DNA of 64,000 nt from a virus (taxonomy: Duplodnaviria > Caudoviricetes), in the IMG/VR virus record IMGVR_UViG_3300027578_000006, positions 190 to 64,189 of that record. The stretch is one strand, 5' to 3'. Both the position numbers and the translations under genes were made by a program. The notes under the pieces are model-generated. The model was not told the DNA's origin. It saw nothing but the letters and a program-made list of their open reading frames with translations, and did not search any database. Shown here piece after piece: positions 5,239 through 56,011 of this stretch (position 1 is the first letter of the stretch; each line of letters begins with the position of its first letter).

Positions 5239-7521
5239 ATGAGCCTCCACGATTCAGCCAGCCAAGTACAATCCGCCGGACGCGGTGAAGACAAAGTCCT
5301 CGTCCACATGACCCCCGGCGAGGTCAGCGGACTTCAATCCCTTGCGATGGCGCATGGCGGCTCCCTCACGATCAACCCAACAACGGGTCTGCCTGAAGCA
5401 GGCATTCTGTCTTCGTTGCTCCCCACACTGATTGGTTTTGGTCTGGCCCCACTTACCGGCGGTTTGTCTGCTGCGCTCATTACTGGTGCTGGATACACTG
5501 CGGCTACTGGCAGCTTAAAGAAAGGCATCATGGCGGGTCTTGGTGCTTATGGTGGCGCTGGCTTGGCAGGCGGGTTAAATGCTATGGGAGCGCAGAGTGC
5601 GGCGGCGGGGACAGTTGATGATATTGCTTTAGCTAGTAAAAACGCTGCGGCTAATTCGCAGATTGGTGCCGGGTATAACACTATCGCACCTCAAACACAA
5701 GTTTTTGGTCAACCCGCTGTGAGCGCTACTAGCGCAGCAACCACAACAGCACCTAATATGGGGCTTTCAGCGTACACCTCACCAAAACCGCTTTACCCAG
5801 ATGTAAATTTTGCGAGTGGAATGCAAACGCCTACAGCTGTAACATCATCAGTTCCAACAGGAACCGATAGGTTTGTGCGTCTTGGCGACCCCATGAACTA
5901 TCCCGCTCCCAACCAGACTGTTTCGCAAAGAATAGCGGCGGGTAAAACAAACGCTTTTAGTTCCCCAATCGACCAAGGTTCGCAATACTATAAAGACATT
6001 AGCGGTAAGATTAAAACGCTAGAACCTAGATCGGAGCTTGCACAAAAATTAACATACGACGGAGCAAAAACTTATCCTGATCTTTCAACTTTAGAATATG
6101 GTGGCGGGTACGGAACGGCTCCGGGCGGGCGGTATTTTATTGAGAACCCATTAAAGGGATCGGCGGCTTCTTCAACAGGGGCACCGATAGTAAACCGAAG
6201 CGGGATGCAAACAGTATTGGAAAAACCGGTTGTCAGGTCTGAGATACTCCCCGGCGATCCCGCATTAGCGCAACCCCAATCAATTACTGGGCCATACCGG
6301 GGGTACATGTCACAGGTAGGCCAAGGCGCTAAAAATGTATACGCTGGGGGTATGCAAGGACTGAAGGATCTGTACGCAGCATCGGAAGCTGCCGCGCCAT
6401 ATTCAGGTTTAGCTGGGTTGGGTAGTACGGCGTACAGTTATTACGATGAAAAGCGTGAAGAAGCGGAAGAAGAAATGCGCCGTCAAGCCGACAAATCTCC
6501 CGGCATGATCCGCCCTTATGAGTTTAGCTATAGCCCCACCAGCACAGCTTTTGAACCGTACTCTGGCAGCGCAGAGCGCACATATTTTCAGCCGTCATAT
6601 ACCGCGCTTACTCCTTACGAAGCGCCGGGGCCTGAATACAAGAAAGCAGCCGAGGGCGGCTTGATGGGGTTGGCTGTGGGCGGGCCTATTGAGCAGATGG
6701 CCGCAATGAATTCAGTGGGGGCAAACACAGGATACCCAATGGCAGACATTAACACGTCGTTGTACAGCAACCCTACAATGCAGCGCCCTGAAGCAACAAA
6801 TGTCATCGCACCATCAGCCGATGCAGGTGTGGGCGCTTATTCTGGCGAAGCTCGGTTTGCAAAAGGTGGTGGTACAGTAGACCCACAAAACAAAAGTAGC
6901 GGGTATGAGTACTCGTACGACCCAAAGACAATGCAGTTTACGCAAACTGGTGGGCCGTCAGCAGCAGCGCCAAAAGGTTACGCTGGGTTTGGAAATTTAA
7001 TACCAAGTCTTTTAGCGCAAATGCCGCAGCAAACTGCGACACCAGATAGTGCAGTATCCGGTGGTATTGCTCAACCCGTAATGCAACCAGCAGCCCCAGC
7101 ACAACCGCTTATTCCTAACATTGACATCCCTGCTTACCAAACACCTGAGCAGCAGCTTGGTTTGGGTGGGTTTTATGACTACATGAACCAGCAGATGGGT
7201 GGTTACGGTGGTTACGCTGCGGGTGGTGGTGTGTCGCACTTGGGCGACTACTCTGATGGTGGGCGACTCTTGAAAGGACCCGGCGATGGAGTTTCGGATT
7301 CTATCCCTGCTTCTATTGGTAACAGGCAACCTGCTCGTCTTGCTGATGGTGAGTTTGTGGTACCCGCACGTATTGTGTCCGAAATCGGAAACGGTTCAAC
7401 CGAAGCAGGTGCCCGTAAGCTCTACGCGATGATGGATCGTGTGCAGAAAGCCCGACGCAAAACCGTAGGTGAAAATCAAGTAGCACGTAATACCAAGGCA
7501 GAGAAACTTCTGCCCGCATGA
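5239..7521 (+). CDS. internal virion/ejection protein with multiple xAxGG motifs
   Basis: 760 aa; N-term GRGEDKVLVHMTPGE..NPTTGLPE; C-term GPGDGVSDSIPA..LADGEFVV; low-complexity centre. Confidence 0.6.
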   Translation: MSLHDSASQVQSAGRGEDKVLVHMTPGEVSGLQSLAMAHGGSLTINPTTGLPEAGILSSLLPTLIGFGLAPLTGGLSAALITGAGYTAATGSLKKGIMAGLGAYGGAGLAGGLNAMGAQSAAAGTVDDIALASKNAAANSQIGAGYNTIAPQTQVFGQPAVSATSAATTTAPNMGLSAYTSPKPLYPDVNFASGMQTPTAVTSSVPTGTDRFVRLGDPMNYPAPNQTVSQRIAAGKTNAFSSPIDQGSQYYKDISGKIKTLEPRSELAQKLTYDGAKTYPDLSTLEYGGGYGTAPGGRYFIENPLKGSAASSTGAPIVNRSGMQTVLEKPVVRSEILPGDPALAQPQSITGPYRGYMSQVGQGAKNVYAGGMQGLKDLYAASEAAAPYSGLAGLGSTAYSYYDEKREEAEEEMRRQADKSPGMIRPYEFSYSPTSTAFEPYSGSAERTYFQPSYTALTPYEAPGPEYKKAAEGGLMGLAVGGPIEQMAAMNSVGANTGYPMADINTSLYSNPTMQRPEATNVIAPSADAGVGAYSGEARFAKGGGTVDPQNKSSGYEYSYDPKTMQFTQTGGPSAAAPKGYAGFGNLIPSLLAQMPQQTATPDSAVSGGIAQPVMQPAAPAQPLIPNIDIPAYQTPEQQLGLGGFYDYMNQQMGGYGGYAAGGGVSHLGDYSDGGRLLKGPGDGVSDSIPASIGNRQPARLADGEFVVPARIVSEIGNGSTEAGARKLYAMMDRVQKARRKTVGENQVARNTKAEKLLPA

Positions 7522-7979
7522 GTTATACGTTTCATCTTGGTGGGTTCAAAGAAACCTACGCTGAACTTGAACCGCTGTATCGCCAGCACTACGCGGAGAT
7601 GACGGAGCGTTTGGAAGCAGAGGGCATACCGTGTTCTCCGTACAACCCGCGACTGGATGAATATATAAAAGCGGGTGATGGTGGTTGGTTGTTGACGTTC
7701 ATTCTGCGGTTGGATGAAAAGGCGGTGGGGTACAGCAACGTATATCTTACCAACGACATGCACAACGGCGATTTAATTGCGCAAGAAGATACAATTTTTG
7801 TACTAAAGGAACACCGAAATGGTGTTGGTAAGAAGCTGGTAAAAGTTATTCTGGAAGAGTTAAAAGAGCGCGGGGTTAAACGGGTATCGGTTTCCGCGCT
7901 TACTGATTTGAGGGTCGCCAAACTTTGGAAGCGAATGGGTTTTAAAGAAGCGGCAGTTCAAATGTTATATACATTCTGA
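7518..7979 (+). CDS. GNAT-family N-acetyltransferase
   Basis: acetyl-CoA motif A IFVLKEHRNGVGKKL and LWKRMGF. Confidence 0.8.
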   Translation: MSYTFHLGGFKETYAELEPLYRQHYAEMTERLEAEGIPCSPYNPRLDEYIKAGDGGWLLTFILRLDEKAVGYSNVYLTNDMHNGDLIAQEDTIFVLKEHRNGVGKKLVKVILEELKERGVKRVSVSALTDLRVAKLWKRMGFKEAAVQMLYTF

Positions 7980-7986
7980 GGTCATT

Positions 7987-8988
7987 ATGTGCGCACCATC
8001 ACAACCTTCACAACCAACTAATACAACTCAGACGACCACGTCGATTCCAGAATACGCCAAGCCGTATGTGGAGAAGATGCTGGGTAAAACCGAGGCGCTG
8101 AGTAATGCGCCGTATCAGGCTTATGGCGGAGAAAGAATCGCTGGGTTTACCCCGATGCAACAGCAAGCGCAGCAATCAGCGGCTAACTTAGGGCCAGCGC
8201 AGCAGTTGGGTGTTGGTACGCAGATGGCAGGACTTGCCGGGCTGGGTGCGATGGGAGCAGGTCAGCAGTATCAACAGATGGCTACCAACCCCTATGCTAT
8301 GCAAGCGTACATGTCGCCGTACGTAGAAAATGCACTGCAACCGCAGATGCGAGAAGTGGCAAGACAGTCCGCTATGGTAGGGCAGCAGAATCAGGCGCAG
8401 GCTGTACAGCAAGGTGCCTTTGGTGGTTCGCGTTCTGCTATCGTAGAAGCCGAGCGCCAGCGCAATTTAGGCCAACAGCAAGCAGATATTTATGGCAGGG
8501 GTATGCAGTCTGCCTTTGAACAGGCACGTCAGGCGCAGCAGTTTGGTTCTACACTTGGGTTGCAAGGTATGCAAACCGCAGGGCAGATGGCGGGTACTTT
8601 AGGCCAGTTGGGGCAAACGCAATTCGGTCAACAGCAACAAGCTCTGCAAACTCAAGCACAGATGGGTGGACAGCAACAAGCGTTGGAGCAACAGCGTTTG
8701 GCGCAGCAGTATCAGGACTTTGCAAATCAGCGTCAGCATCCGTATCAGCAGTTGGCGTTTATGTCCGACATGTTGCGTGGCTTGCCATTGTCCCAAACAG
8801 CACAGACAATGTACCAAGCACCCCCATCTACGCTGTCACAGCTTGGCGGTTTAGGGCTTGCAGCCTACGGTATGTTCGGTAATCCATACGGCCAGTCACA
8901 AGGCAAAAAAGAAGGCGGTGCAATTAAAGAGTCGGACTCACCCGCTGGGCTGTCTGAGTTGCTGCTCTACGACATGGAGAAGGCATAA
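7987..8988 (+). CDS. internal virion (DNA ejection/pilot-like) protein
   Basis: Gln/Gly/Ala-rich helical protein with GAFGGSR motif. Confidence 0.65.
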   Translation: MCAPSQPSQPTNTTQTTTSIPEYAKPYVEKMLGKTEALSNAPYQAYGGERIAGFTPMQQQAQQSAANLGPAQQLGVGTQMAGLAGLGAMGAGQQYQQMATNPYAMQAYMSPYVENALQPQMREVARQSAMVGQQNQAQAVQQGAFGGSRSAIVEAERQRNLGQQQADIYGRGMQSAFEQARQAQQFGSTLGLQGMQTAGQMAGTLGQLGQTQFGQQQQALQTQAQMGGQQQALEQQRLAQQYQDFANQRQHPYQQLAFMSDMLRGLPLSQTAQTMYQAPPSTLSQLGGLGLAAYGMFGNPYGQSQGKKEGGAIKESDSPAGLSELLLYDMEKA

Positions 8989-8990
8989 TC

Positions 8991-10862
8991 ATGCTGAACG
9001 TAATCGATATTACCTCCCGTCTGGCCAAAATGTCAGACCCTCAGTTGCGTCAGTACGCGCAGATACACAAGGACGATCCTTACACACTGGCGCTGGCTGC
9101 GGCTGAAAATAAACGTCGTGTTCAACTACGAGCTTCAGGGCAACAGCAAGCTGCCCAACAGCCTACCGTAGCAGACCAAGCGATTGCACAAATGGGCGCA
9201 CCAGCGCCGATGCCTCAACAGGCTATGGCTCCACAACCCCAACTACCAGAACAGCAAGGCATCGGCATGTTGCCTGCACAAAACGTCGCGGGCATGGCTG
9301 ACGGCGGCATCGCCGGATACGGTGATTCGTACGCAGATGAGTACGCAAATGGCGGGATTGTGGCGTTTAAAGATAAAGGGTTTGTTGACACCGCAACGGA
9401 ATATCTAGCGGACAAATTTTCAAACCTGCCCACACTTCCGGGGTGGAATATGGTGGCGCAACCGATGTTTAAGGGCGCTACGTATGGGGAAGAGGCGCGT
9501 CGTTCATTGGAATCTCCAGACACTTCTTCAGCTACTGGTCGAATTTTTGCGCCTATCAGAAAAACAGTTAGTGATTTTCTTAGCACTCCAAGCCTTGACC
9601 CCGCTACGCAACAACAGTTGGAAAATCTGGATAAACAAGCTCGTGCTTTGTCGGCGCGTCGTAAAGCCCTGACAGGTACTTTTGGGTTTCAGCAACAAAA
9701 TCCTGCGCAACAAGCAGAAGTAGCGCAAATTGATAAACAAATGAACGATTTACGGCAACAAGGCGAAGCATTAAAAAATAAAACGGAAAAAGCTGCTGCA
9801 TCGCCCGAACAAGGCCAACCTAAACCAGCAACTCCGGCAGAAACGTACAGCAGCATTACTGCACCACAGCCAAAACCGGCAGCACAAACACAGACCTCAA
9901 AAGCGCAGATCGGTACAAAAACCACCCTTGGCACAGGCACTACCAAAGACGGAAAAGCAGCCGCCGTTATTGAAAAAGCACCTGACTTTACCCCAAGCCA
10001 GCCGGGCGATTTAGACAAGGAGCTTAAGCGGCTTCAAAAAATGAGTCCGGGCACCAAGGCTTATGACGATCTGAGCGCCAAGATTAAACAAGGCTATACT
10101 GATTTGGAAAAAGCCAGAGAAGAAGGCCGACCCAAGGATAAAGCCTTTGCTGGGCTAGAAGCACTGCTGGGTAAGGAAGAAGATAAAGCCAAAGGCAAGG
10201 AAGCGCGTAACTTCAACATGGCACTGGTCAATGCTGGTTTAGCTATTGCAGGAGGCAAGTCCCAGTATGCACTTCAGAATATTGCAGAAGGTGCGCAGGT
10301 GGGTACCAAACAGTATCAGGAAGGTTTGGAAAAACTGGAAGCGGCTGCGTTGGAACGCCGCAAACAGGCCGCTATGATTGAAGAAGCCCGCCGTGCAGAA
10401 GCTCGTGGTGATTGGAAAGAAGCCCAGCAGTTTAAGCAAAAAGCGTTTGAAGCAGACCTTGGCGTTAAGCAAGCGCAGATTGCTGCTGTGCAAGACTTAT
10501 ACAAGACCGACCTTAAAACGGCTGCGGACATTGTTAACAATCAAAACACGCTGGCTTCCGCAGATCGCCGGTCTATGTTTGAACAGCAACAGCAAACTCT
10601 ACGAGCGCGTGAACAAAACGTAGCGCATCTCCAAGGGCAGAGAATTATGGCTTCGGCTTATGGTGCCCGTGCAGATCAGCGTGGTCAGATTACTCCTGCA
10701 CTGATGCTTAAAGAGTACAACGACTTGATTTCTGCAAACCCACTGGCTAAAAAACAATACCCAACATTTGAATCGTATATGGTTGCAATTCAGCAGGCGT
10801 CACAAGGGGGTAAAGACCCGTACGCTGGTTGGGGTAATCTGCAAGTAACATCGCCTAAATAA
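8991..10862 (+). CDS. internal virion protein
   Basis: 623 aa coiled-coil rich, MADGG and YANGG motifs, lies in the ejection module. Confidence 0.6.
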   Translation: MLNVIDITSRLAKMSDPQLRQYAQIHKDDPYTLALAAAENKRRVQLRASGQQQAAQQPTVADQAIAQMGAPAPMPQQAMAPQPQLPEQQGIGMLPAQNVAGMADGGIAGYGDSYADEYANGGIVAFKDKGFVDTATEYLADKFSNLPTLPGWNMVAQPMFKGATYGEEARRSLESPDTSSATGRIFAPIRKTVSDFLSTPSLDPATQQQLENLDKQARALSARRKALTGTFGFQQQNPAQQAEVAQIDKQMNDLRQQGEALKNKTEKAAASPEQGQPKPATPAETYSSITAPQPKPAAQTQTSKAQIGTKTTLGTGTTKDGKAAAVIEKAPDFTPSQPGDLDKELKRLQKMSPGTKAYDDLSAKIKQGYTDLEKAREEGRPKDKAFAGLEALLGKEEDKAKGKEARNFNMALVNAGLAIAGGKSQYALQNIAEGAQVGTKQYQEGLEKLEAAALERRKQAAMIEEARRAEARGDWKEAQQFKQKAFEADLGVKQAQIAAVQDLYKTDLKTAADIVNNQNTLASADRRSMFEQQQQTLRAREQNVAHLQGQRIMASAYGARADQRGQITPALMLKEYNDLISANPLAKKQYPTFESYMVAIQQASQGGKDPYAGWGNLQVTSPK

Positions 10863-10873
10863 CAGGAATAGCT

Positions 10874-13800
10874 ATGCCAACGTACAGCATTCAAGGGCCA
10901 GACGGTAAAACATATTCTATCGATGGCCCGCCAAATGCCACGCGAGAGCAAATTATTGGTGCTATTCAAGCGCGGATGCAACAGCAGCAAGCACAAGCCG
11001 CAGCCAAACCAAGAGAGCCGGGCATTATTGAAAGCGGTATTGGCGGAGCCAAGAAGCTGCTGTCTTCCCAACGCACGGCGTTGGAGTCCTTTGCAAGTCC
11101 GGAAGAAGCCGCGCAGGCGGGGTTGGCTCGTGCCCGTGCGCTGGAAGAAAAAACCCCCACTGCACTAAGTCTGGAAAAGGTCAAAGATAAGTACGCACAG
11201 GAAGGCTTTTTCCCTGCTGCTGGGGAAGTGCTGCGTCAGGCTCCGAGTTTTATTGCAGAGCAGCTTCCACAACTGGGAACTGCTTTTGCGGGTGGGCGGT
11301 TGGGGGCTATGGCTGGCGCTCCTTTAGGTCTGCCCGGTGTGATAGGTGGCGGTATTGCGGGTGCCCTTACGCCTTTGGCTTTGCAAGCCTACGGTACGGG
11401 CGCTGAACGTCGCGCTGCTGAAGGACTCCCACAAGACCCCGGTAAAACAGCCGTGTCTGCGTTAGGTCAAGCAGGTCTGGAAACCGCCGCTATGGTGATT
11501 CCGTTTGGCGGCAAGCTGATGGGCCGCCTACTGGGCGTGGGAGAAAAAGAAGGTGTTCAGGCACTGGTGTCCCCCGCAGCCCGCAAGCTGGCTGAAGAAC
11601 GTCTGGCCACATCGATCGCCAAAGGTACCGGTAAAGGTTTGTTGGCTGAAATCCCCACCGAAGTTGGGCAGCAGATGCTGGAGCGTTGGCAAGCCAACTT
11701 GCCGTTGATGGACGACAATGCATTGAAGGAATACAGCGAAGCTGCCTATGGCGCTACGCTTTTTGGCGGTCCATTTGGTGGTGTTGGCCGCAGGGTGCAA
11801 GTTGGTCAGGCAAAAGAAGACGTTGCCCGAGGCGATGCGCTTGAAGCCACAAAGAAAGCCAAAGAACTGCGCGAAGCAGAAGCGGCAGAAAAAGCCAAGC
11901 CTGAATACGCGCTGCGTATTGGCGATCAGTTTGAAGCCCTACAACAGCAAGAAAAAGCTTTGCTTGCAGCGCGGGGTAAGAAGCTGGGCAAAGACGCAAC
12001 TGATGAGCAGAAAGACCTGTTTGCACAGCAGACAGAAGAACTGCAAGGCTTGCGCAACCAACTGAAAGAGCTTGCTCCTGCGTACAAAGAAGTTAAAGCC
12101 AAGCTTCCCAGCTTGAGAGAAGAGCGCCGCATCGCTGGTATGTCTGAACAAGACTATTACTACGAGCAGATGGGCATGAAGTCGGACGCGCAGCTTGCCG
12201 CCGAACAAGCCGCAAAAGAAAAAACCGCGCCGCCAAAAGACGAGATGCAGGCTTGGATGGATCAGACTGCTGCGCAGGCAAAAGCCGTTCCTGCTTCACA
12301 ACTGCAAAAAGAATTGGATACGGCGCTGGGTGGTTTGCGTCACTGGGGTTCGGTTACGCCTACGGATGTAGCAGAAGTGTTGGCAGATAATCCCGTGCTA
12401 ATGCTTAAAGTATACAAGGGCGAGATTCGCATTCCTGAATTTAAAGCCAAAGATACACAGACGCTTAAGAGCATTCTTGAGTTGCAAATGAGCAACTTGG
12501 CTGGCCAGATGGCACAGGGGCGTGTTGCTGCTGAAAAAACAAGTGCGCAGATTGAAGAAGAAAAAGCAGCACTGCAACGCATAAGCGAAGCCCCCCTACC
12601 CGAATCTAAAGCAGCTACACAGCTTGGTCTACTGAATGAACTTGAGGGCTACGCCGGAGAAATGAAACCGGGCGTCTCAGTTGAACCCGGACTGCAAAAG
12701 CAAAACTACAGAGCTAAAGCACGAGAGTTCCAAGAGACCGCAGATGATGCACTGGTTAAAATTCAGGAAAGTCTGGATAAGATTGCCAGAGGTGAGACGC
12801 TGGACAGCTCTCGCCCTGATGCACGTAAGTTTGCATCTGCTACCTCAGACATTATTCGTCAGCAGGCAGAGCAAGCCAAACCGGAATACATTGACGCGGT
12901 TATGAACCGTGTGGCAAACGAACGTGCGGCGGAGGGGCAACAGCCTATTACGACCGACCAAGCTGCAAAAGCTGCGGTTCAGATGAACGCTGCACTTGAT
13001 GCGTTTATAAATAGGCAGGCCACTGAAGAGGCTTTGCTCAGACAGCTTGATGTGCTCCGCGCCAGATTGCTGGTGGCGCGTCCCGAAGTGCAGAAACAAG
13101 GGCTTCCAACAGAGGGTCCGTTGTCCGCGCAGAGTAGCTACCGCGAAGCGCAACGCGTTGCCGAGGAGCGTGGTGAAACTGCCCAGACACTGGAAGGTCA
13201 ACTGCGCCGTCAGCGCGACTACGTTGGTGGTTTGCTTGAGCGCGTCATACCTACCGGCACCATTCCACGTAATACACGGGCGCTGTTGCAGCAGACACAG
13301 ACTGCGATTGAAGATGGTATCGCCACACGTGAGGTGTTAGACCTTGCCGAAGATATTGCGACTCGTGTACAGCGTGGTCAGAATACACAAGCAGAATTGC
13401 CCAAGCTCAATGATGCGTTGCGTTCCATGCAGCAGGCACAGGCTCCCGGTATTGAGGGCGGTCAGCAGTCGTTGTTTGGCGCTGAAGATTTAGGCGTTGT
13501 TCGCGCTACCGCTGCAAACTTCCGTAAGTTCCTTGGCTCAAAACAAGTGCAGGCACTGCGGGCACTGCTGCCTAAAGTTGAAGCGGTTGTTGAGAAAGAG
13601 CGCACTGTTCGTACCGGAGAAGGTCGTCCGGGGGTTGATATTGGGTTTTACGACAAGCGTATCGACACGCTAGAAACACGGATTAACGAAGCTAAAGATT
13701 CATTGGAAGATGTGGGCGGCGCAAGCTGGGAATCCATAATGGAGACCCGCGCTGTATTGCCTGAAGAGGTCCGTGTTGCTCGTCAAAAGCTTGTTGCTCT

Positions 13801-16800
13801 GCTGCAAGAGCAGAACAAGTTGGAGATGGAAAGAGAAGCATCGCTTAAGCAGAAGCCCAAAAGCAACCGTGCGCCCTACGCCGCAGTACAGGCCGAAGCT
13901 AAAGCCGCCAAGCTTAAAGACCAGATCAAGGACAAGGAAGTTAGCATCCTGCAATCTATCCGCGATCTGGCAGCACAGATTCGTGAGCAGCGCGGTCAGG
14001 CTTTGTACGGCCCCATCATCCAGAAGTTTGAGCAGCAAGCACAGTTGTTTGAAGCAAGGCTGGCTGAGTTGGAAGGCTCTATGCCAGAAGGCGGGCGCAT
14101 GTCGCCTGACTTGGACGCACTGTTTACTGAAGCCGAAGACCTGAAAGAAGAAATTGCAAAAGCCCGCGCTGCTGTTAAAGAAGCCCGAGACAGACAAGAA
14201 CGTACCGAAGACAACTCAGGTCTGCTGGCTGCGGCGGATGAGCGCATCGTCAAAGACAAACAGCGTCTGGCCGAACTGGAAAAGAAACTTGCCAACATAG
14301 ATTTTGTTGGAGAAGAGCGCCGTGCTGCGCAGGTTGAAGCTGGCAAACTGCGTCGTGATACTGCCGTAGCAGACAGCAAGCTGCGTGAAGCCAAAGAACT
14401 TCAGAGCAAGCAGACTGAAGAACGCAAGCGCCGTATTTCTACAGGCGAAGGTACGCAGAAGTTAACTCGCCAAGTTGTACCGGTTGAGCGTGTCACGCCA
14501 TCAGGCAAGCGTATTGTCATGAAAGAAAAAGGCACTGGCCTGCCCGTGCAGCAGAAGAAAACTACCGGCGCATACGCTGAACGGGAGCCGGTTAAAGGTC
14601 TTGACTGGAAGACAACCAAAGAATCTAAGCCACGCATTGCACCAACAGCAGAAGCGGTTGAAGAAACCACGCCTAAAGCACAACGCGTGGGCGCGGCGGA
14701 GAATTTTAAAGACATTGCAAAAACAGCAGGCACACTTGCACGGCAGGCCAATGTTACTGACGTAACGCCCAAGCCAAAGAGAGCCGAACCGTTGCGTGTT
14801 GGCAGTCAAGAAGCCAGAGAAGAAAAGATCACGAAGAAGCAAACACTTGCACAGAGACGCAAGCTTGCACGAGATACTGCCGAAGGCGTTGTTTCTGAAT
14901 ACGATGACGACGCAGGTCTTGCGTTTCGCACAGCCAAAGCACCAGCTACGCCGGTTGACGCAGCAGAAGCAAAGAAGTTGATAGTAGAGACCCTCTCTAA
15001 GCTACCCAAAGGCGTGAAGCTGACTTACGTCCCCACGCTTGAGGGTATGGACCCTGCGTTGTTGAAACGTCTGGTTGAGCAAGGGTACAAAGAAGGTGAA
15101 GCGTTTAAAGGTGTAGTGCTGCCAGATGACGGCACCATCGTTGTGGTGGGCGACCAGCACGGTAGTGTTAAGGACTTGGAAGAGACGCTGTTCCACGAGA
15201 TGGTGGGCCACTACGGCATTGACACCGTGATTGGCATGGACCGGTTGAAGAAGTACGCCCATGCAACAGACCTTGAGAAGCTGGCCGCGAAGCTGGGCGG
15301 TGACCAGTTGTGGACACACGCTGTTGATGCTATGCGGTTTGCCAACGAGCAAAAAGGTGATACAGAACTTGCCGCACTGCGCGAGATTATTGCTTACACA
15401 GCCCAGCAACGCATCACTGAGAATTTTAAACAGAAGGCTGGACGCTGGTTGCAAGAGCTTGTGGGTATGGTGCGCTCTGCACTACGTCAGATGGGCTTTA
15501 AGAACATGGCAGAGATGTCTACGTCTGATGTGTTCTACGCCATCAAGTTGGCTAATAAAGCTTTCAATGAGCGCACTGTCGGCCCTTATCGTGCAGAAGG
15601 CGGTGTGATGGCGTTCCGTACCAAGCGTGAGCCAAGCCGTTACGGTAGCTCTTTTGTTGGTAGCCAGAAAGGTGTTGTCGATAACCTGCGCGGCAACTTC
15701 CTTGGGTTGTCTGGGCGTGTGCAGTTCGTTGACCAGTACGCGGCGCTCGATGCGGCTATGAAGAAGGGGCTGGATGCAGGCGTTATCTCTGACTTGGAAG
15801 CCGAGCAGGCTGGGTACTACCTGCGCTTTGGTCAGCAGGCTAACGCTTTTGCTACACAGGCGCTGACTAATGGCCCACTGGCACTGGTTAAGCAGATGAC
15901 TAAACGCGGCATGGAGTTTGTTTACAAGAGCGCACCGGGTGCCAACATGGTCAAGGTTGCTCAGGCGCTGGAGAAATCCGGCATCAAAAACAGCACTGAG
16001 TTGGAGCACATGTTTACCATCTACGCGGCAGGTAAACGCGCCAAGCAGGTGGGCTGGAAGAAGCTGAACTTTGATAACCCCGACGCTGTTGAGCAGGACT
16101 ACAACAGACTGATGGAAGAGCTTAAGGGCAACGCCAAAGCCCGCGCTGCGTTTGAAGAAGCCGCCAAGATTTACAAAGAGTATAACAACGGGCTGGTTGA
16201 TTTTGCTGCGCAGACAGGCTACTTGTCTCAACAGAAAGCAGCAGAGTTGAAGGCAACGGACTACGTACCGTTCTATCGTGTGCAGGGCGGCGAGTTGCAG
16301 TTGATGGTGGACAAAGAGCGTCCTATCCGTATTGCCAACATGAAAGACGAGCCGATGTTGCACGAGCTTGTTGGCGACAACACACAGATTCTCCCGATCT
16401 TTACAAGCTCGGCGCAGAACGCGTTTGTTCTGACCCGCATGGGTCTGCGTAACCAAATGATGAAAGACAACGTGATGTTGTTGGGCCGTCTGGGTATTGC
16501 AAGCAAGATTGGTAAAGGCGCTGGTCCACAAGGTCCGAACACGGTTCGCTACAAGGTTAAGGGCGAAGACAACTTTGCCGTCATCGACTCCGATATGTAC
16601 GGCATCCCAGCAGACTTAATCGTCAAGGGTATGGAAGGTATCAAAACCACCATCCCGATGGCCATCAAGATCATGGGTATGCCAGCCAATGTGTTGAGAA
16701 AGTTTGTCACCCGCAACCCAGCTTACGCTGTGCGTCAGGCTATTCGTGACCCGCTGACTGCTTGGTTCACTACTGGCACGGATGGTGTGCCTGTGCTTAA

Positions 16801-26178: not shown

Positions 26179-26410
26179 CGGTATCTCTCAAGGGTTCTTG
26201 GCAACGGATAACCGCGAGTCCTGCATGACCCATGTACCCACCGCAGACGGATGACCAGCTTTGCGTGAAGCAGGAAACCTCGCCCTTGTGCGGGCAGTCT
26301 TTAGTGTGTAATGGGAAAGCACCCTCGGTGCTGTTGGGGTACGGCTTAATTGCAACCGCCCTATACGTTTCCATTCTTATTTTTCCATCGTAGTAAATTT
26401 CAGTAATCAT
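26168..26410 (-). CDS. hypothetical protein
   Basis: 80-aa Cys-containing ORF overlapping both neighbours. Confidence 0.5.
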   Translation of the reverse strand: MITEIYYDGKIRMETYRAVAIKPYPNSTEGAFPLHTKDCPHKGEVSCFTQSWSSVCGGYMGHAGLAVIRCQEPLRDTDEK

Positions 26411-26736
26411 TCAAACCTCGCAGAGTCAATGGCTTCGGACAGCCGGTGGGCAAACTCGGTAACGAACTTCTCGTTGCGGTTAAGTCGATGCTCATCCATG
26501 TCATACAGGATGGCATGTACCAACTCATGCCAGAACGAATCGTTCATTTCTTTTCTTGAGTAGCGCCGACCAGTGACGCCACTCTTCTTACCGACTTCAA
26601 TACGGTTGCGCTCGTAATACACCCGAGCCATATCACCGCTCTGCAACATCGTCTCCAGTATGTCGATGGTGTACATCTTCTTACCGACTCTGATCTTGCG
26701 TGGCAACTCTAACTTCTTCTTTCTGGTTTTATCCAA
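26407..26736 (-). CDS. small zincin-like metallopeptidase
   Basis: FWHELVHAIL (HExxH) followed by NEKFV. Confidence 0.7.
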   Translation of the reverse strand: MDKTRKKKLELPRKIRVGKKMYTIDILETMLQSGDMARVYYERNRIEVGKKSGVTGRRYSRKEMNDSFWHELVHAILYDMDEHRLNRNEKFVTEFAHRLSEAIDSARFE

Positions 26737-46837: not shown

Positions 46838-47115
46838 TGGATAGCTTCGCAAGCGTATTGCGCGACAAAATACGCAAAGACATGAACGACTACACGGACG
46901 ACATGGCAAATGGCATTTGCATGGACTTCGCTGCTTATCAAAAACTGTGCGGGGTAATTCAGGGTCTTGCCCTCGCGGAGCGACACTTACTTGACCTTGT
47001 AGAAGCAGCAACTAAAGAGGATGAAGACGATGAGCGAACTGATGCTACCTCCGGGTATTCAAATGCCGGAGCCAATACAACCAGTCGAAGAGCCAACCGA
47101 GGAAATCCCTATTGA
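46834..47115 (+). CDS. small hypothetical head-module protein
   Basis: DFAAYQKLCGVIQGL motif. Confidence 0.6.
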   Translation: MMDSFASVLRDKIRKDMNDYTDDMANGICMDFAAYQKLCGVIQGLALAERHLLDLVEAATKEDEDDERTDATSGYSNAGANTTSRRANRGNPY

Positions 47116-47458
47116 AGACCGTGGGCGCATGTTACCCACGCCAACAGGATGGAAAATTCTTTGTGGTGTTCCCGATGTATCAGACAAGTTTGAAAACTCC
47201 AGTCTTGTAAAAGCGGAGTCGGTTATGCGTCAGGAAGAGCACTCAACCACTATTTTGTTTGTGCTGGCTGTTGGACCCGATGCGTACAAAGACACCGCCA
47301 AGTTCCCCAATGGACCTTGGTGTAAAGAAGGCGACTTCGTGTTAGTGCGTACTTACTCCGGTACTCGGTTCAAGATTTACAACAAAGAGTTCCGTTTGTT
47401 AAATGACGACCAGATTGATGCGGTCGTGGACGATCCACGCGGTATTACCCGTGCTTAA
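47030..47458 (+). CDS. groES: GroES-like co-chaperonin
   Basis: PTGWKIL, VLAVGPDAY, KEGDFVL..YSGT, RLLNDDQIDAVV. Confidence 0.85.
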   Translation: MSELMLPPGIQMPEPIQPVEEPTEEIPIEDRGRMLPTPTGWKILCGVPDVSDKFENSSLVKAESVMRQEEHSTTILFVLAVGPDAYKDTAKFPNGPWCKEGDFVLVRTYSGTRFKIYNKEFRLLNDDQIDAVVDDPRGITRA

Positions 47459-47470: not shown

Positions 47471-48454
47471 ATGTTAAACAAGTTTAATTTTCCGGATGAG
47501 GATGACGACAGAAAAGTCGTTGCCCAAGAAGAAGACGATTCCGTAGTCATTCAGGCTGATGCCGAAGGTGATGTCGAAATTGAGATATTTGATGATACCC
47601 CTGTAAAAGACCGTGGCCGCAAGCCATTGGACAAAGAGGTGTCAGACCCGACTGACGACGAAATCGAAAACTATTCGGATAAAGTGCAAGCTCGTATCAA
47701 AGAGCTAACACATGCCCGTCACGACGAGCGCCGAATGAAAGAGTCCCTCTTGCGAGAAAAGCAAGAAATGGACAAACTCATGGCGTACCTGTCTGAAGAG
47801 AATAAAAAACTCAAGCAGACAGTTAATTACGGGCAAGAGGTATATATCTCTACCGCGACAGATGCTGCTGAAGCCCAGTTGCAAGCTGCCCGCCGTCAAC
47901 TTAAAGATGCCCAAGAGTCTTACGACACCGACGCCATTATTGAAGCCCAAGAAGCTTTGATGGAGGCAAAGGTTAGAGTATCGCAGGTAAAAAACTTTAA
48001 ACCGACCCCTTTACAAGAAGAAGAAACCGCGGTACAAAGAGAACCATCTCAACCCCAACAAGTTGCACCGGACGAGAAGACGCTGCGCTGGCAGGCAAAA
48101 AACCAGTGGTACGGTCAACCGGGGTTCGAAGAATACACCAGCTATGCACTAGGGCTGCACCACAAACTAGTCAACTCGGGGGTAGACCCTCGTGACGATG
48201 AATACTTCGCCCAAATAGATGGGCGCATGCAAAAGACGTTCCCCGAATTATTTGGCGGGAATGCTGAGAAAAAGCCTGAATCTTCACAGGTTCAATCCGA
48301 GGCTCCAAAAAAACCTGCGGCTGTGGTTGCTCCAGCGTCTCGTTCGTCTGGAACAAAGAAAATCCAACTTTCTACTCGGCAACTTGCCTTGGCTAAGAAA
48401 TACGGACTAACCCCGCAGCAGTATGCTGCTGAAGTAGCTAAATTGGAGGTTTAA
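47471..48454 (+). CDS. capsid scaffolding-like protein
   Basis: acidic coiled coil upstream of capsid genes. Confidence 0.65.
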   Translation: MLNKFNFPDEDDDRKVVAQEEDDSVVIQADAEGDVEIEIFDDTPVKDRGRKPLDKEVSDPTDDEIENYSDKVQARIKELTHARHDERRMKESLLREKQEMDKLMAYLSEENKKLKQTVNYGQEVYISTATDAAEAQLQAARRQLKDAQESYDTDAIIEAQEALMEAKVRVSQVKNFKPTPLQEEETAVQREPSQPQQVAPDEKTLRWQAKNQWYGQPGFEEYTSYALGLHHKLVNSGVDPRDDEYFAQIDGRMQKTFPELFGGNAEKKPESSQVQSEAPKKPAAVVAPASRSSGTKKIQLSTRQLALAKKYGLTPQQYAAEVAKLEV

Positions 48455-49535: not shown

Positions 49536-50447
49536 ATGGCTATTTCACGCGCACAACTACTGAAAGAGCTGCTCCCCGGCCTGAACGCCTTGTTCGGTCT
49601 GGAGTATGCACGTTACGGCGAAGAGCACAAAGAGATCTACGAAACAGAGACCTCCGAGCGTTCTTTCGAAGAGGAAACCAAGCTGTCTGGCTTCTCGGCT
49701 GCTCCAGTCAAGAACGAAGGCTCTGCGATTGCTTATGACAATGCGCAGGAAGCTTGGACTGCTCGATACAACCACGAAACCATTGCCCAAGGTTTCTCGA
49801 TCACTGAAGAAGCGATTGAAGATAACCTGTACGACAGCCTGTCTGGCCGTTATACCAAGGCTTTGGCTCGTTCAATGGCCTACACTAAGCAGGTTAAAGC
49901 GGCTGCAATTCTGAACAACGGCTTCACTGGCGGTCAATACGCTGGCGGTGACGGCGTGGCTCTGTTTGCAAACAACCACCCACTCGTTTCTGGCGGCACT
50001 AACTCGAATATCCCTTCGACCCCCGCTGACCTGAACGAAACTTCGCTGGAAAACGCTGTGATTCAAATCGCTGCGTGGACTGACGAACGTGGTCTGCTGA
50101 TCGCTGCCCGTCCTCGTAAACTGATTGTTCCGCCGAGCCTGCAATTCGTTGCAACTCGTCTGCTCGAAACCAGTTTGCGTGCCGGTACCAACGATAACGA
50201 CATCAACGCGATCAAGAACAACGGTTCGATCCCAGAGGGTTATACAATTAACCACTGGCTGACCGACACCAATGCTTGGTTCCTGACCACCGACGTTCCA
50301 AACGGCATGAAGCATTTTATTCGTGCATCGCTGGATACAAAAATGGATGGTGATTTCGATACGGGCAACGTGAGATACAAAGCACGTGAGCGTTACTCTT
50401 TTGGCTTCTCAGACCCTCTGGGTATGTACGGCAGCCAAGGCGCGTAA
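49536..50447 (+). CDS. major capsid protein (Mu gpT-like family)
   Basis: MAISRAQLLKELLPGLNALFG...RYKARERYSFG; followed by a terminator. Confidence 0.9.
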   Translation: MAISRAQLLKELLPGLNALFGLEYARYGEEHKEIYETETSERSFEEETKLSGFSAAPVKNEGSAIAYDNAQEAWTARYNHETIAQGFSITEEAIEDNLYDSLSGRYTKALARSMAYTKQVKAAAILNNGFTGGQYAGGDGVALFANNHPLVSGGTNSNIPSTPADLNETSLENAVIQIAAWTDERGLLIAARPRKLIVPPSLQFVATRLLETSLRAGTNDNDINAIKNNGSIPEGYTINHWLTDTNAWFLTTDVPNGMKHFIRASLDTKMDGDFDTGNVRYKARERYSFGFSDPLGMYGSQGA

Positions 50448-50449
50448 GG

Positions 50450-50477
50450 AAATGGGGGGCTTTCGCCCCCCATTTTT
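50450..50477 (+). terminator. intrinsic terminator
   Basis: AAATGGGGGGC-TTTC-GCCCCCCATTTTT. Confidence 0.85.
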
Positions 50478-50498
50478 GTATGGTATAAAGCAGTAAAT

Positions 50499-50575: not shown

Positions 50576-50583
50576 CAATTCAA

Positions 50584-51087: not shown

Positions 51088-51103
51088 GTAAAGGAGCATC
51101 ATC

Positions 51104-52166: not shown

Positions 52167-52168
52167 TC

Positions 52169-52423
52169 ATGGCTAAATCACCAGCATGGCAGCGCAAAGA
52201 AGGTAAGTCCGAAAAGGGCGGTTTGAACGCCAAAGGACGGGCTTCGTATAACGCAGCGAATCCGGGGAAACCCGGTCTGAAAGCCCCCCAGCCGGAAGGC
52301 GGCGCAAGGAAAAAGTCATTTTGCGCCCGGATGTCTGGGATGAAAAAGAAACTGACTTCTTCGAAGACTGCCAATGACCCGAACAGCCGTATTAACAAAT
52401 CTTTGAGAGCATGGAAGTGTTGA
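52169..52423 (+). CDS. small basic protein
   Basis: AWQRKEGK..GGLN..GR, RKKSFCARM, SRINKSLRAWKC. Confidence 0.7.
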   Translation: MAKSPAWQRKEGKSEKGGLNAKGRASYNAANPGKPGLKAPQPEGGARKKSFCARMSGMKKKLTSSKTANDPNSRINKSLRAWKC

Positions 52424-52425
52424 AC

Positions 52426-52668
52426 ATGGCAACTCCAGAAATTGAAACAGCGCGTGAGCTTGCAACCCACGCCAACGATATTAAGCATCTGCAAGATGAC
52501 ATGGATGCCATGCGTGAAGACGTTGCGGCTATTCGTAAATCGCTGGAAGAAATCAGCAGAAAGCTGGCTTCTGCCGAAGGCGGTTGGAAAATACTCATTG
52601 GGGTGGGTAGTTTTGCTGGCGGTATCGTTGGCACAGTCCTTGGATTTTTTGGTAGTAAAGCAAGCTGA
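52426..52668 (+). CDS. coiled-coil plus C-terminal TM protein
   Basis: heptad pattern followed by a hydrophobic helix. Confidence 0.6.
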   Translation: MATPEIETARELATHANDIKHLQDDMDAMREDVAAIRKSLEEISRKLASAEGGWKILIGVGSFAGGIVGTVLGFFGSKAS

Positions 52669-53003
52669 TGCCTACCGTATCTAAAAAGCAGGAAAAGTTT
52701 ATGCAGGCAGTTGCCCACAACCCTGCGTTTGCTAAAAAGGCCGGTGTGCCGCAATCAGTGGGTAAGGAATTTACTAAATCAGGAGGCGGTATGGCAACGA
52801 AAATGAATGCAGGTTTCATGGCAATGATGAAGAAAAAAGCTCCAGCCAAGAAGATGGCCGGTGGTGGTGTAGCCGCATCAAAGATGGGCGCTGTTAAAAC
52901 TGCTGCTCCTAGCAAAGACGGTGTTGCTATTAAAGGCAAAACCAAGGGCAAGCAAATCGTCATGGCCGGTGGCAAGGGCATGAAAAAAGGCGGCTACTGC
53001 TAA
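52668..53003 (+). CDS. small Lys-rich protein with MAGGG and MKKGG motifs
   Basis: SKKQEKFM..AHNPAFAKKAGVPQSVGKEF N-terminus. Confidence 0.7.
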   Translation: MPTVSKKQEKFMQAVAHNPAFAKKAGVPQSVGKEFTKSGGGMATKMNAGFMAMMKKKAPAKKMAGGGVAASKMGAVKTAAPSKDGVAIKGKTKGKQIVMAGGKGMKKGGYC

Positions 53004-53015
53004 TAGGAGGCCATC

Positions 53016-53300
53016 ATGGCTGATAAAAGTACCGGAGCAAAACGTATTGGCCGAGACACAATGCGGTCAATGGGTCTTGACCCAGATAAAGACTATGTAG
53101 AAGCAGCCAAAAGCAAAGCTTCTGAACTTGCTGCTGACGCAGGTGTGGGTATGCGCAACGCTGGCCGACTGTACGGTAAGAGCATCGGTATGGATGTTAG
53201 CCCGTACGAGAAAGAGCGCGGTATGAAGTCAGGCGGCAAAGTTAAGTCTGCCTCCGCCCGTGCCGATGGCTGCGCTATTCGCGGTAAAACAAGAGCATGA
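53016..53300 (+). CDS. small basic protein with MKSGG motif
   Basis: C-term MKSGGKVKSASARADGCAIRGKTRA; AGGAGG RBS. Confidence 0.7.
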   Translation: MADKSTGAKRIGRDTMRSMGLDPDKDYVEAAKSKASELAADAGVGMRNAGRLYGKSIGMDVSPYEKERGMKSGGKVKSASARADGCAIRGKTRA

Positions 53301-53572
53301 TGGCCTCACGCGGTATGGGTGCAATTAGCCCTTCCAAGATGCCCGGCGGGAAGAAGAAAGCCCGTCGGGATGACACCGACTTTACGCAGTACAAAGAAGG
53401 TGGGAAGGTTAATGCTGCTGGTAACTACACCAAGCCCGAACTTCGCAAGAAGATCGTGTCGCAGGTAAAGTCCGCAGCAACTCATGGCACGGGTGCAGGT
53501 CAGTGGTCAGCCCGCAAAGCGCAGCTTGTGGCTAAGAAGTACAAGGCTGCTGGTGGTGGGTACAGAGATTAA
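53297..53572 (+). CDS. small basic protein, YKEGG followed by a DUF5872-like N-half
   Basis: NYTKPELR...GQWSARKAQL...YK..GGGY. Confidence 0.65.
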   Translation: MMASRGMGAISPSKMPGGKKKARRDDTDFTQYKEGGKVNAAGNYTKPELRKKIVSQVKSAATHGTGAGQWSARKAQLVAKKYKAAGGGYRD

Positions 53573-54226: not shown

Positions 54227-54456
54227 AAGCGCCACAGCAAAGCCTTAAAAACTGGGGAGACCAGAAATGGCGAACCAAAAGCGGAAAGCCGTCGTCAAAG
54301 ACCGGGGAGCGTTACCTCCCGGAAAAGGCAATCAAGGCACTAAGCCCAGCCGAGTATGCCGCTACAACGAAGGCAAAGCGGGCGGGTAAGAAAGCAGGAA
54401 AGCAGTTCGTAGCGCAGCCTAAAGGCATTGCAAAGAAAACAGCAGGGTTTAGATAA
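54223..54456 (+). CDS. small basic protein, DUF5872-like C-half
   Basis: QQSLKNW..QKWRTKSG...GERYLPEKAI. Confidence 0.65.
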   Translation: MKAPQQSLKNWGDQKWRTKSGKPSSKTGERYLPEKAIKALSPAEYAATTKAKRAGKKAGKQFVAQPKGIAKKTAGFR

Positions 54457-55403
54457 TGACCACATCCGGTACAGCCAGCTTTAATCTTGACCTCAACGAA
54501 ATGGTTGAGGAGGCGTTCGAACGCGCCGGGAGTCAGTTGCGTACCGGCTACGATCTGCGTACAGCCCGGAGGTCTTTGAACCTCCTTTTTGCCGATTGGG
54601 CAAACCGTGGCGTGAACATGTGGACGTTCGAGCAGAACACGATTACTTTGACACAGGGGCAACCAACGTATGCACTTCCTGACGATACTGTTGATCTGCT
54701 TGACCATGTTATTCGTACTAACGCCAACCAGACAAACAACCAAGCTGACCTGACGATCACCCGCATCTCAGTTTCAACTTATGCCACCATCCCTAACAAG
54801 CTAATTCAAGGCCGTCCAATTCAGGTTTGGGTGCAGCGTCTGTCGGGTAGTGAGTCCTTACTTGTTGGTACGTTACAAGCGGGCATTTCAGCGGCAGCAA
54901 CCACTATTCCTGTAACTTCGCTGGCGGGCATCCCCACCGCCGGGTTTATTCGTATCGGCACAGAACTGATCGGGTTTAACCAGACCCAACCTGCGGAAAA
55001 CGGCAACCCAGCGTACCTGCTTAACTGCACACGCGGGCAGGACAACACAACGGCAGCAGCGCACTTGGTAAGTGCAGCCATGTATGCCGTACAAAAGCAG
55101 AGCATTACCGTCTGGCCAACCCCAGACAGCGCCTATACTTACCAGTTCGTTTACTGGCGTATGCGCCGTATTCAAGATGCAGGTGCAGGCGGCACCAAAA
55201 CCATGGATGTGCCGTTTCGTTTTGTCCCTTGCTTGGCCGCAGGGCTGGCGTACTACATTGCGTTGAAAGTACCGGAAGGACTGTCGCGGTTAGACATCCT
55301 TAAAGCTCAGTATGACGAGGCGTGGAACAACGCAGCAAATGAAGATCAGGATCGGGCGGCGGTACGGTTTGTCCCAAGACAGTACTTTATTGGTGGTGGC
55401 TGA
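54456..55403 (+). CDS. head-tail adaptor-like virion protein
   Basis: EEAFERAG..TGYDLRTARRSLN..WANRG.N.W; VWPTPD. Confidence 0.65.
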   Translation: MTTSGTASFNLDLNEMVEEAFERAGSQLRTGYDLRTARRSLNLLFADWANRGVNMWTFEQNTITLTQGQPTYALPDDTVDLLDHVIRTNANQTNNQADLTITRISVSTYATIPNKLIQGRPIQVWVQRLSGSESLLVGTLQAGISAAATTIPVTSLAGIPTAGFIRIGTELIGFNQTQPAENGNPAYLLNCTRGQDNTTAAAHLVSAAMYAVQKQSITVWPTPDSAYTYQFVYWRMRRIQDAGAGGTKTMDVPFRFVPCLAAGLAYYIALKVPEGLSRLDILKAQYDEAWNNAANEDQDRAAVRFVPRQYFIGGG

Positions 55404-55405
55404 TT

Positions 55406-55828
55406 GTGGGTAACAGGTTTGCTTCCGGTAAATTCGCAATTGCGGAGTGCGACCGGTGCGGGCAGCGGTATAAGCTCAAGGAACTGAAGAAGCAGGTCTT
55501 AAAGACCAAGACGTACAATCTGCTGGTGTGCCCCACTTGTTGGGACCCAGATCAGCCACAGCTTCAGTTGGGCATGTATCCAGTGGACGACCCGCAAGGT
55601 TTGCGCGATCCCCGGCCTGATTTGAGCTACTACCAAGCGGGCTACACAGGGTTGCAGTTGACAGAGACGGTAGGTACCGGCATAAATCAAAATGGTGATC
55701 CGTCAGGCGGTAGCCGGGTGTTTCAGTGGGGCTGGAGGCCGGTGGGCGGCTCCAGTGCTAATGATGCGGGGCTGACACCAAACTACTTGGTATCTGCCGG
55801 AGTTGTGGGTACAGTAACGATTACTTAG
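55406..55828 (+). CDS. zinc-finger protein
   Basis: CDRCG...VCPTCWD..PQ. Confidence 0.7.
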   Translation: MGNRFASGKFAIAECDRCGQRYKLKELKKQVLKTKTYNLLVCPTCWDPDQPQLQLGMYPVDDPQGLRDPRPDLSYYQAGYTGLQLTETVGTGINQNGDPSGGSRVFQWGWRPVGGSSANDAGLTPNYLVSAGVVGTVTIT

Positions 55829-55837
55829 GAGTAAGAC

Positions 55838-56011
55838 ATGAAACATTCAGATATTAAGAAAGACAAGCCGATCATGGAAAAGATTGCTAAGAAAGCAGTC
55901 AAAGGCCACGAGAAGCGTATGCACAAGATGGCCAAAGGCGGTGTGACTTCAGAACAAATGAAGAGCATGGGCCGCAATCTGGCACGTGTTGCCAACCAAA
56001 AATCGGGCTAA
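55838..56011 (+). CDS. 57-aa basic protein with MAKGG motif (not in ORF track)
   Basis: AGGAG RBS; MKHSDIKKDK...HEKRMHKMAKGGVT...GRNLARVANQKSG. Confidence 0.7.
   Translation: MKHSDIKKDKPIMEKIAKKAVKGHEKRMHKMAKGGVTSEQMKSMGRNLARVANQKSG

Follow-up and report, generated by a model that had tools for sequence, protein, structure and literature searches.

Why should unrelated late proteins of one aquatic tailed phage, from large ejection proteins to small basic ones, repeatedly carry the same short peptide built around two glycines? The question is raised by a 64,000-nucleotide stretch of viral DNA (IMG/VR record IMGVR_UViG_3300027578_000006, positions 190 to 64,189; this whole stretch is called the window below), which makes up nearly all of a 64,189-bp single-contig phage genome. 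An earlier note on this DNA had listed 14 such pentapeptides and proposed that they form a phage-wide cleavage or capsid-targeting code. All 14 translate as listed at their coordinates, and 12 of them fit the pattern [MFYL][AKS]xGG, referred to here as the tag; the exceptions are AAEGG (6646) and KKEGG (8905), whose orthologous positions in relatives read Y-A-A-x-G-G and F/M-A-x-G-G, respectively. The tag exists, is register-specific, conserved and variable in copy number, and occurs on heterogeneous carriers in low-confidence (disordered) regions. We tentatively read it as a short linear motif by which proteins that exit the virion via the tail channel dock or co-assemble, a reading that we prefer while holding it with some reserve.

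A register-specific, conserved tag on late proteins

Pattern matches were counted in open reading frame (ORF) sets that, for the window (88 ORFs) as for the other genomes, are crude longest-ORF calls. Late genes of the window lie on the + strand (1-18181 and 42205-64000) and early genes on the - strand; 14 of the 15 matches fall in the late ORFs and one in an early ORF. Whole-protein shuffling predicts 4.28 ± 2.04 late matches, with none of 2000 shuffles reaching 14, versus 1.14 for the single early match. Shuffling within 20-residue blocks gives 4.7 ± 2.1 late matches, and one of 300 such shuffles reaches 14. Controls of the same composition are flat in the late proteins: the reversed pattern occurs 0 times (4.8 expected), the pattern with its first two positions swapped 6 times (4.8 expected) and the pattern in a shifted register 8 times (5.0 expected), while [MLI]xGG is not enriched either (18 vs 17.4). 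Shuffles and controls together exclude composition as the explanation and mark the tag as a non-random feature of the proteins; moreover, codons vary synonymously across the 14 sites, so it is not a DNA repeat. Two late matches beyond the listed ones, at 59051 and 63049 in tail-like proteins, look like chance.

An independent set was provided by the C-terminal module of the 760-residue carrier (described below), whose profile retrieves, at E ≤ 1e-3, 12,835 cluster representatives. From 150 representatives (50% identity), 66 likely fragments were dropped and 84 were kept (at least 400 residues, Met start), and the last 95 residues of each were removed. These 84 members of the 760-residue family contain 267 copies, versus 53.6 ± 7.3 in local shuffles (267 reached in 0 of 300) and 36.2 ± 6.2 in whole-protein shuffles (0 of 500), and every one of them has at least one copy. 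Here too the reversed, swapped and shifted controls are flat, and [MLI]xGG shows no excess (152 vs 172.6).

The carriers in the window are, as had been claimed, three large proteins (760, 333 and 623 residues) and four small basic ones (111, 94, 91 and 57 residues; isoelectric point (pI) 9.9-10.5). They are Gly- and Ala-rich, and neither Pfam nor NCBIfam holds a family for any of them. The 760-residue tape-measure-like ejection protein (5239..7521, + strand) has six sites, namely MAHGG (5347), AAEGG (6646), LAVGG (6670), FAKGG (6856), YAAGG (7213) and YSDGG (7249), and a hypervariable middle. Its AlphaFold2 (AF2) model has a mean predicted local distance difference test score (pLDDT) of 53; the sites at 6646, 6670, 6856 and 7213 lie in segments below 50, as does most of the site at 7249, and MAHGG lies in a 10-residue block averaging 57. 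The Gln-rich 333-residue protein (7987..8988, + strand) matches phrog_4287, 'DNA ejection protein' (E 2.6e-19), and carries the tag-like KKEGG (8905) about 25 residues before its C-terminus. The 623-residue internal protein (8991..10862, + strand) contains MADGG (9294) and YANGG (9342) within a conserved block at residues 86-122.

Among the small proteins, all encoded on the + strand, the 111-residue one (52668..53003; pI 10.5) contains MAGGG (52854) and a C-terminal MKKGG followed by YC (52980), the 94-residue one (53016..53300) contains MKSGG (53223) and then DGCAIRGKTRA, and the 57-residue one (55838..56011; pI 10.5) has a central MAKGG (55928). The 91-residue protein (53297..53572) carries YKEGG (53390) between a variable leader and a conserved C-terminal domain, which the earlier note had called DUF5872-like. 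The junction stands, since YKEGG lies exactly where the match to phrog_17747 (residues 32-90) starts; the family name is not confirmed by Pfam, in which no family matches at E ≤ 5. Matches to the 94-residue protein in the ESM Atlas are unnamed viral clusters only.

Several further features of these small proteins were observed. The first 39 residues of the 111-residue protein (52668-52784) match phrog_16759 as well as the N-terminal parts of two PHROGs (263 and 845 profile positions) that are annotated 'virion structural protein', and may represent another portable module. A second shared element, D-G-[CV]-A-I-[RK]-G-K-T-[RK], follows the tag in the 111- and 94-residue proteins (52914-52952 and 53262-53297) and is conserved within the 111-residue family. 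An invariant C-terminal Cys recurs as well: the 111-residue family ends G-G-x(1-6)-C in 14 of 15 members (window 52992-53000), a C-terminal Cys is present in all four members of an array family described below (e.g. L066:2840-2842), and an 84-residue DUF6321 protein (Cys at 52418-52420) has a W-K/N-C end in every full-length row.

Conservation was assessed in 97 related loci fetched with two window proteins and 41 more fetched with a third. Every site is kept in orthologues, as the proposal of a shared signal requires, and the flanks are hypervariable and predicted to be disordered. In the 760-residue family the sites form conserved islands amid indel-rich, otherwise unalignable sequence, with two to six copies in 41 of 41 orthologues and the last site, YSDGG, in 40 of 41. 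An alignment of 16 members of the 623-residue family places eight of the nine columns that are invariant over the whole protein at residues 86-107, the motif block, and a DNA pattern for M-A-[DE]-G-G-I-V-A-F found 53 IMG/VR stretches, of which all 52 that were read encode the GIGxLPAxNMxxMAEGGIVAF block of this family. The C-terminal site of the 333-residue family reads F/M/K-A-x-G-G. In several relatives (L036, L042, L047, L052 and others) the 333- and 623-residue proteins form a single ORF of 770-1024 residues with extra copies at the junction, an arrangement that would reflect gene fission or fusion. The small families behave in the same manner, with M[AK]KGG in 13 of 13 distinct members of the 57-residue family, a C-terminal M-x-x-G-G...C in 14 of 15 distinct members of the 111-residue family (the 15th being a short ORF), and [YF][KA]xGG, followed by variable-length insertions, in all rows of the 91-residue family among the matches listed. 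Relatives of the 94-residue protein are longer, and many start M-K-R-K-x-K-R-F/Y-x-x-G-G.

Sites occupy orthologous positions even in proteins that are otherwise less than 30% identical, and Ala and Lys may replace each other at one orthologous site (MAKGG/MKKGG, YKEGG/YASGG). Positions preceding Gly-Gly are more conserved than those following it; the second residue past it is mostly Val, Leu or Ala, and farther relatives have the form hydrophobic-K-x-G-G-R-[VI]-G-[FY]. Successive copies lie at most 12 residues apart in 33% of pairs, versus 2% in shuffles, with peaks at 8-9 residues and tandem copies as close as 5-9 residues. Very basic proteins of some relatives contain whole arrays (12 copies in L066, 10 in L068/L069 and 9 in L064) whose invariant columns fall on the motifs; AF2 models a 433-residue array protein as disordered (mean pLDDT 40.6). 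Other copies sit at extreme ends, 2-3 residues from the C-terminus (MKKGGYC, YMDGGRV) or in the N-terminal MKRKxKRFxxGG. Overall, the tag may stand at either terminus or at a domain junction, on cargo-like proteins that are unrelated to one another, in agreement with the earlier remark that it often marks module junctions. A conserved island in variable disordered sequence, with variable copy number and unrelated carriers, is what characterizes a short linear motif.

The tag also occurs in other phages, and its carriers, heterogeneous as they are, are all encoded in morphogenesis operons. The terminase of the window is about 50% identical to those of Pelagibacter phages HTVC023P/027P, phage 023Pt_psg01, DSL-LC04 and Planktothrix phage Pag-Yong1, and its capsid protein is 74% identical to that of Pag-Yong1 and 39% to that of Caulobacter phage RLK. 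In DSL-LC04 (9 vs 3.98 expected, P 0.014), three N-terminal copies are carried by a PcfJ-like 825-residue protein whose gene lies between those for terminase and portal, and further copies occur on the homologues of the 760- and 623-residue proteins and on two small proteins. Phages 023Pt_psg01 (13 vs 5.4, P 0.002) and MW202675 (12 vs 4.5, reached by 0 of 500 shuffles) have copies on large proteins encoded beside the portal; the MW202675 carriers, encoded between portal and GroES, are annotated as peptidase M15, 'type I restriction enzyme' and yenB. Pag-Yong1, in whose ORF set an overlapping ORF displaced one carrier gene, has copies at equivalent places and two more at the C-terminus of a 268-residue homologue. 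HTVC023P and HTVC027P show no significant excess, and the distribution over lineages is patchy. Calling the signal phage-wide was too broad, because CRP-901, Alcaligenes phage QDWS535 and the P22 ejection proteins lack the tag. One portal homologue (L070:7949-11185, 1079 residues) has a single copy between its core and a C-terminal extension of about 310 residues.

The C-terminal module and tape measure proteins

The conserved C-terminal module of the 760-residue protein (7213..7518, + strand) comprises YAAGG and YSDGG, then GPGDGVSDSIPA and, farther on, DGEFVVPA, followed by two helices and an LPA end. It represents the last 106 residues of the protein and has a mean column identity of 74% (29 sequences). 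YSDGG (7249) forms the first part of a module of about 45 residues that is also present in the tape measure proteins of many siphophages. Among the 150 representatives described above, the tag lies within 30 residues upstream of GPGDG in 149, with two copies in 143. A tblastn search with 77 residues found 399 phage records, the majority annotated as tape measure proteins from phages of Mycobacterium, Pseudomonas, Vibrio and Burkholderia, and in JBD88a, Urkel, RLK and Douge a hydrophobic-A-x-G-G core stands immediately before GPG. The Urkel tape measure protein has a second copy of this core immediately before an NlpC/P60-like segment. Within the window, a match over the whole module to the tape-measure type GPGxGxSDxIPA-GE[FY]V is confined to region 7213-7518 and does not extend to the other 12 sites.

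No Pfam family matches the module. PDB sequence searches with the 760-residue, 623-residue, capsid, portal and 217-residue proteins gave nothing useful, and a PDB profile search with the module matched the tape measure protein gp16 of mycobacteriophage Douge (8zdo_S; E 0.0083, in two stretches). Passages of the structural report describe only residues 1658-1699 of gp16 as modelled, so the module is not resolved there (PMC13033339). The homologue of the 760-residue protein in DSL-LC04 is annotated as a tail tape measure protein. AF2 predicts helices at residues 55-123 of the 760-residue protein (window 5401-5607; pLDDT about 80), which are hydrophobic, rich in Gly, Ala and Leu, and likely to be membrane-inserting segments. 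On the basis of the link to the tape-measure module and these predicted membrane-type helices, the 760-residue protein is interpreted as a podovirus counterpart of tape measure or ejection proteins.

Motif density and the presence of the module correlate imperfectly: Pag-Yong1 and RLK have the module and few copies of the tag, and the 50 kb of MW202675 examined yielded no module. A role of the module as a self-cleaving Ser protease of the LexA or signal peptidase type was considered and rejected, as it is conserved over only about 45-75 residues, for which coil and two helices are predicted, and no peptidase profile matches it.

Docking, cleavage and other explanations

If the tag is a docking or co-assembly motif, its extended core (a hydrophobic or aromatic residue, Ala or Lys, any residue, Gly, Gly, any residue, then Val/Ile/Leu, often followed by Gly/Ala and Phe/Tyr) would be displayed in disordered parts of tape-measure-like and other ejection proteins, of enzyme-carrying cargo and of small basic proteins. 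It would remain uncut and fold into a small beta-hairpin around the Gly-Gly turn, which would dock onto a common partner or onto other copies of itself, with tandem or multiple copies adding avidity. Such docking could recruit proteins into the virion, hold them together for ejection, or both. This reading is preferred because a multivalent uncleaved peptide explains all the positions as well as the arrays, and the tandem spacing suits multivalent docking or a beta-meander and would be odd for cleavage. A weak structural hint of a hairpin comes from the 433-residue array protein, in which the sole strands predicted by AF2 (E347-350 and E353-356, at low confidence) flank a Gly-Gly. Because tape measure proteins reside in tails, the common denominator of the carriers is worded as proteins leaving through the tail channel and not as head cargo.

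Several points weigh against docking. The partner that it calls for is hypothetical, and a complex prediction combining the capsid protein, the scaffold-like protein and residues 80-135 of the 623-residue protein scored 0.09 and 0.07 (mark 0.32), which speaks neither for nor against binding. That the four small basic proteins belong to the virion is an assumption based solely on where their genes lie. Tape measure proteins reside outside the head, which rules out pure capsid targeting as a general role; the targeting half of the earlier proposal is possible, yet it does not fit a YSDGG-type module in tape measure proteins. Overall enrichment is absent from Pag-Yong1 (7 vs 6.2) and from the RLK stretch (2 vs 2), although both contain the C-terminal module. 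CRP-901 (1 vs 4.35) and Alcaligenes phage QDWS535 (4 vs 3.6) are tag-less despite having capsid, scaffold-like, GroES and GNAT genes in common with the window, so a partner among the conserved head proteins is not obviously required. Furthermore, the junction positions and natural fusions (333 + 623, portal plus extension, the Urkel NlpC/P60-like segment) are equally expected of a cleavage site, and the P22 record notes that the host protease OpdA trims gp7, so that a missing phage protease does not exclude cutting.

A wider version of the docking reading, possible but rather doubtful in our estimation, holds that a large and abundant aquatic phage lineage relies on a modular peptide code, never cleaved, by which proteins are marked for particle loading and tail-channel export. 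The core of the code, employed as single copies, tandems or arrays, would be hydrophobic-[A/K]-x-G-G-x-[V/I], and the ancestral form of the code would be the siphophage tape-measure module.

Among the rivals, the tag might be a processing site: a protease of the host, or a phage enzyme that escaped recognition, would cut behind the glycines or between them, thereby freeing modules of polyprotein-like ejection proteins and removing the leaders of small proteins. The positions at module junctions and natural fusions (333 + 623, the L070 portal core and extension, and the Urkel site) accord with such cutting, as do the basic N-terminal leaders of relatives that end F/Y-x-x-G-G, the better conservation of residues before Gly-Gly than after it, and the precedent of gp7 trimming by OpdA. 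However, sites of the adenain and papain-like protease (PLpro) type have a hydrophobic residue (M/L/I) at P4, whereas the tag has it at P5, and [MLI]xGG is flat in the window and in the representatives alike. In addition, cutting copies that lie 2-3 residues from C-termini or in tandem 5-9 residues apart would yield pointless fragments, and YSDGG lies inside a contiguous, extremely conserved module. Scans of about half of the ORFs against Pfam, PHROG and NCBIfam, in which early ORFs are under-represented, recognised no protease family. The analogy drawn earlier with the Gly-Gly proteases of adenovirus and African swine fever virus (ASFV) is not supported by residue position, by the counts or by the proteins searched. 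The earlier observation that no prohead protease is recognisable holds, as Pfam and NCBIfam return nothing protease-like in the portal-capsid region. Of the two zincins that the earlier note had named as candidate enzymes, the one placed in the protein at 10874 is not confirmed, as this 2435-residue protein has no HExxH and its only peptidase match is to Peptidase_M76 (E 0.14); the other, an early 109-residue ORF (26407-26736, - strand), contains the sole HExxH of the proteome and is a weak SprT-like match (E 0.056). Cleavage at the tag is accordingly considered unlikely.

A reading of similarly low probability dispenses with a partner altogether: the tag would be a turn or 'sticker' of Gly/Ala-rich disordered proteins, in which a beta-turn with a hydrophobic anchor serves self-association or condensation with DNA or membranes, or simply reflects a linker habit, spread by common descent and duplication. 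Aromatic residues or Met separated by Gly-rich spacers resemble sticker-spacer sequences, and the low-confidence or disordered AF2 models of all carriers, their Gly- and Ala-rich composition, the arrays in very basic proteins and the patchy lineage distribution are all in keeping with it. The strict register and the preference for Ala or Lys at position 2 stand against it, given that controls of the same composition are flat, as do sites kept at orthologous positions despite less than 30% identity elsewhere and the occurrence of the same core in tape measure proteins of Actinobacteria siphophages. Register, orthologous positions and the siphophage core are better explained by a specific constraint than by a general habit of linker building.

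Far less probable is mimicry of the GroES mobile loop, by which the tag would bind host GroEL for the folding of its carriers or for action on GroEL after injection. These phages encode a GroES homologue beside the scaffold gene, and the loop of relatives, K-T-x-G-G-I/V-I/V/L-L, resembles the GGIVAF copies in having x-G-G followed by two hydrophobic residues. The canonical x-G-G-I/V-I/V/L loop is present in 11 of 13 aligned GroES-like relatives and is absent from the GroES-like protein of the window (47021-47458, + strand), which reads E-N-S-S-L-V-K instead. However, the tag requires a hydrophobic residue at position -3 relative to its first Gly, where GroES has Lys/Glu-Thr; only some copies have two hydrophobic residues after Gly-Gly, many having Lys, Ser or Gly there (MKSGGKV, MAKGGVT, MKKGGYC); the carriers are not GroES-like; and some GroES-encoding phages lack the tag.

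Coincidence of composition combined with post hoc pattern-seeking is barely credible, for although the pattern was defined post hoc on the window genome, two late matches (59051, 63049) and one early match look like chance, and several relatives have no genome-wide excess, the tag is enriched five- to seven-fold in 84 other proteins and also in three other genomes (DSL-LC04, 023Pt_psg01 and MW202675), controls of the same composition are flat, and every site is conserved in orthologues.

Known systems and genome context

The selection, storage and ejection of internal proteins by podoviruses are poorly understood outside T4, T7 and P22, and short peptides that address cargo to virions or shells are known. 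The T4 capsid targeting sequence is a single N-terminal leader of injected internal proteins that is removed by the prohead protease. Like it, the tag is a short peptide common to otherwise unrelated virion proteins that would be injected; unlike it, the tag may be N-terminal, internal or C-terminal, is often multiple or tandem, and has its core in tail tape measure proteins as well. The copies in the window are internal or C-terminal, and the interval from the portal gene to the capsid gene contains no recognisable prohead protease. Encapsulin cargo-loading peptides, which are short, contain Gly and hydrophobic residues, lie in the disordered termini of diverse cargo and dock uncut inside an HK97-fold shell, may be another parallel, as the tag also occurs on diverse carriers and is sometimes terminal; nevertheless, its sequence pattern differs, and phages with a 49-57% identical capsid protein lack it. 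The adenovirus protease, ASFV pS273R and coronavirus PLpro cut at Gly-Gly sites that, like the tag, follow a hydrophobic residue and recur in several virion-internal or core proteins. In the tag, however, the hydrophobic residue is one position farther away, no clan CE protease was found, and copies occur at C-termini and in 8-residue tandems.

A further likeness is to the tape-measure module 'GPGxGxSDxIPA ... GE[FY]V' of Douge, JBD88a, Urkel, RLK and about 400 records, which matches the YSDGG site and the residues after it; the difference is that in the window lineage the core alone has spread to many other positions and proteins. P22 gp7, gp20 and gp16, the head-packaged proteins that this podovirus ejects as a conduit, offer a parallel in that the 333-residue protein matches a 'DNA ejection protein' PHROG; unlike the window carriers, these three proteins contain no match to the pattern. 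A literature search, which did not cover supplementary files (possibly with virion proteomes), found no paper on the motif or the module. If the tag is an addressing peptide, its sequence, position rule and multiplicity would be new.

As a conserved and portable peptide common to ejection proteins, enzyme-bearing cargo and small basic proteins, the tag provides an experimental handle, indicating residues to mutate, bait peptides and proteins that are likely injected. Through it, the ejection proteins of podoviruses are connected with a module in the tape measure proteins of siphophages that has so far gone uncharacterised. If the wider reading as a peptide code were true, phages would have in the tag their own equivalent of encapsulin cargo-loading peptides or of the signals used by secretion systems, and attaching it could direct arbitrary proteins into the virion and have them injected. 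Should the tag prove to be a loading or export signal, phage particles might be used in laboratory systems to deliver chosen proteins.

PHROG matches in the window identify the large terminase, the portal, the GroES-like protein, the major capsid protein, the 333-residue ejection protein and a GNAT acetyltransferase, and family scans find an LPD38 domain in the 2435-residue protein. On the + strand, the portal gene (44387-46837) precedes the GroES-like gene, which is followed by the gene for a 327-residue protein (47471-48454) with an acidic N-terminus, a predicted helical middle and a basic C-terminus, features from which we infer a scaffold. Two genes for proteins with no assigned role separate it from the major capsid gene (49536-50447). 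The GNAT acetyltransferase gene (7518-7979) lies within the ejection-protein operon, and CRP-901 and Alcaligenes phage QDWS535 have a GNAT gene in a comparable neighbourhood, yet are tag-less. At the end of the window, a Gly-rich ORF (63351-64000) runs off the edge and seems to resume at 1-345 across the contig ends. GGN codons are abundant in the first 189 bases of the contig and in its final bases, and these Gly-rich contig ends are consistent with a circularly permuted assembly.

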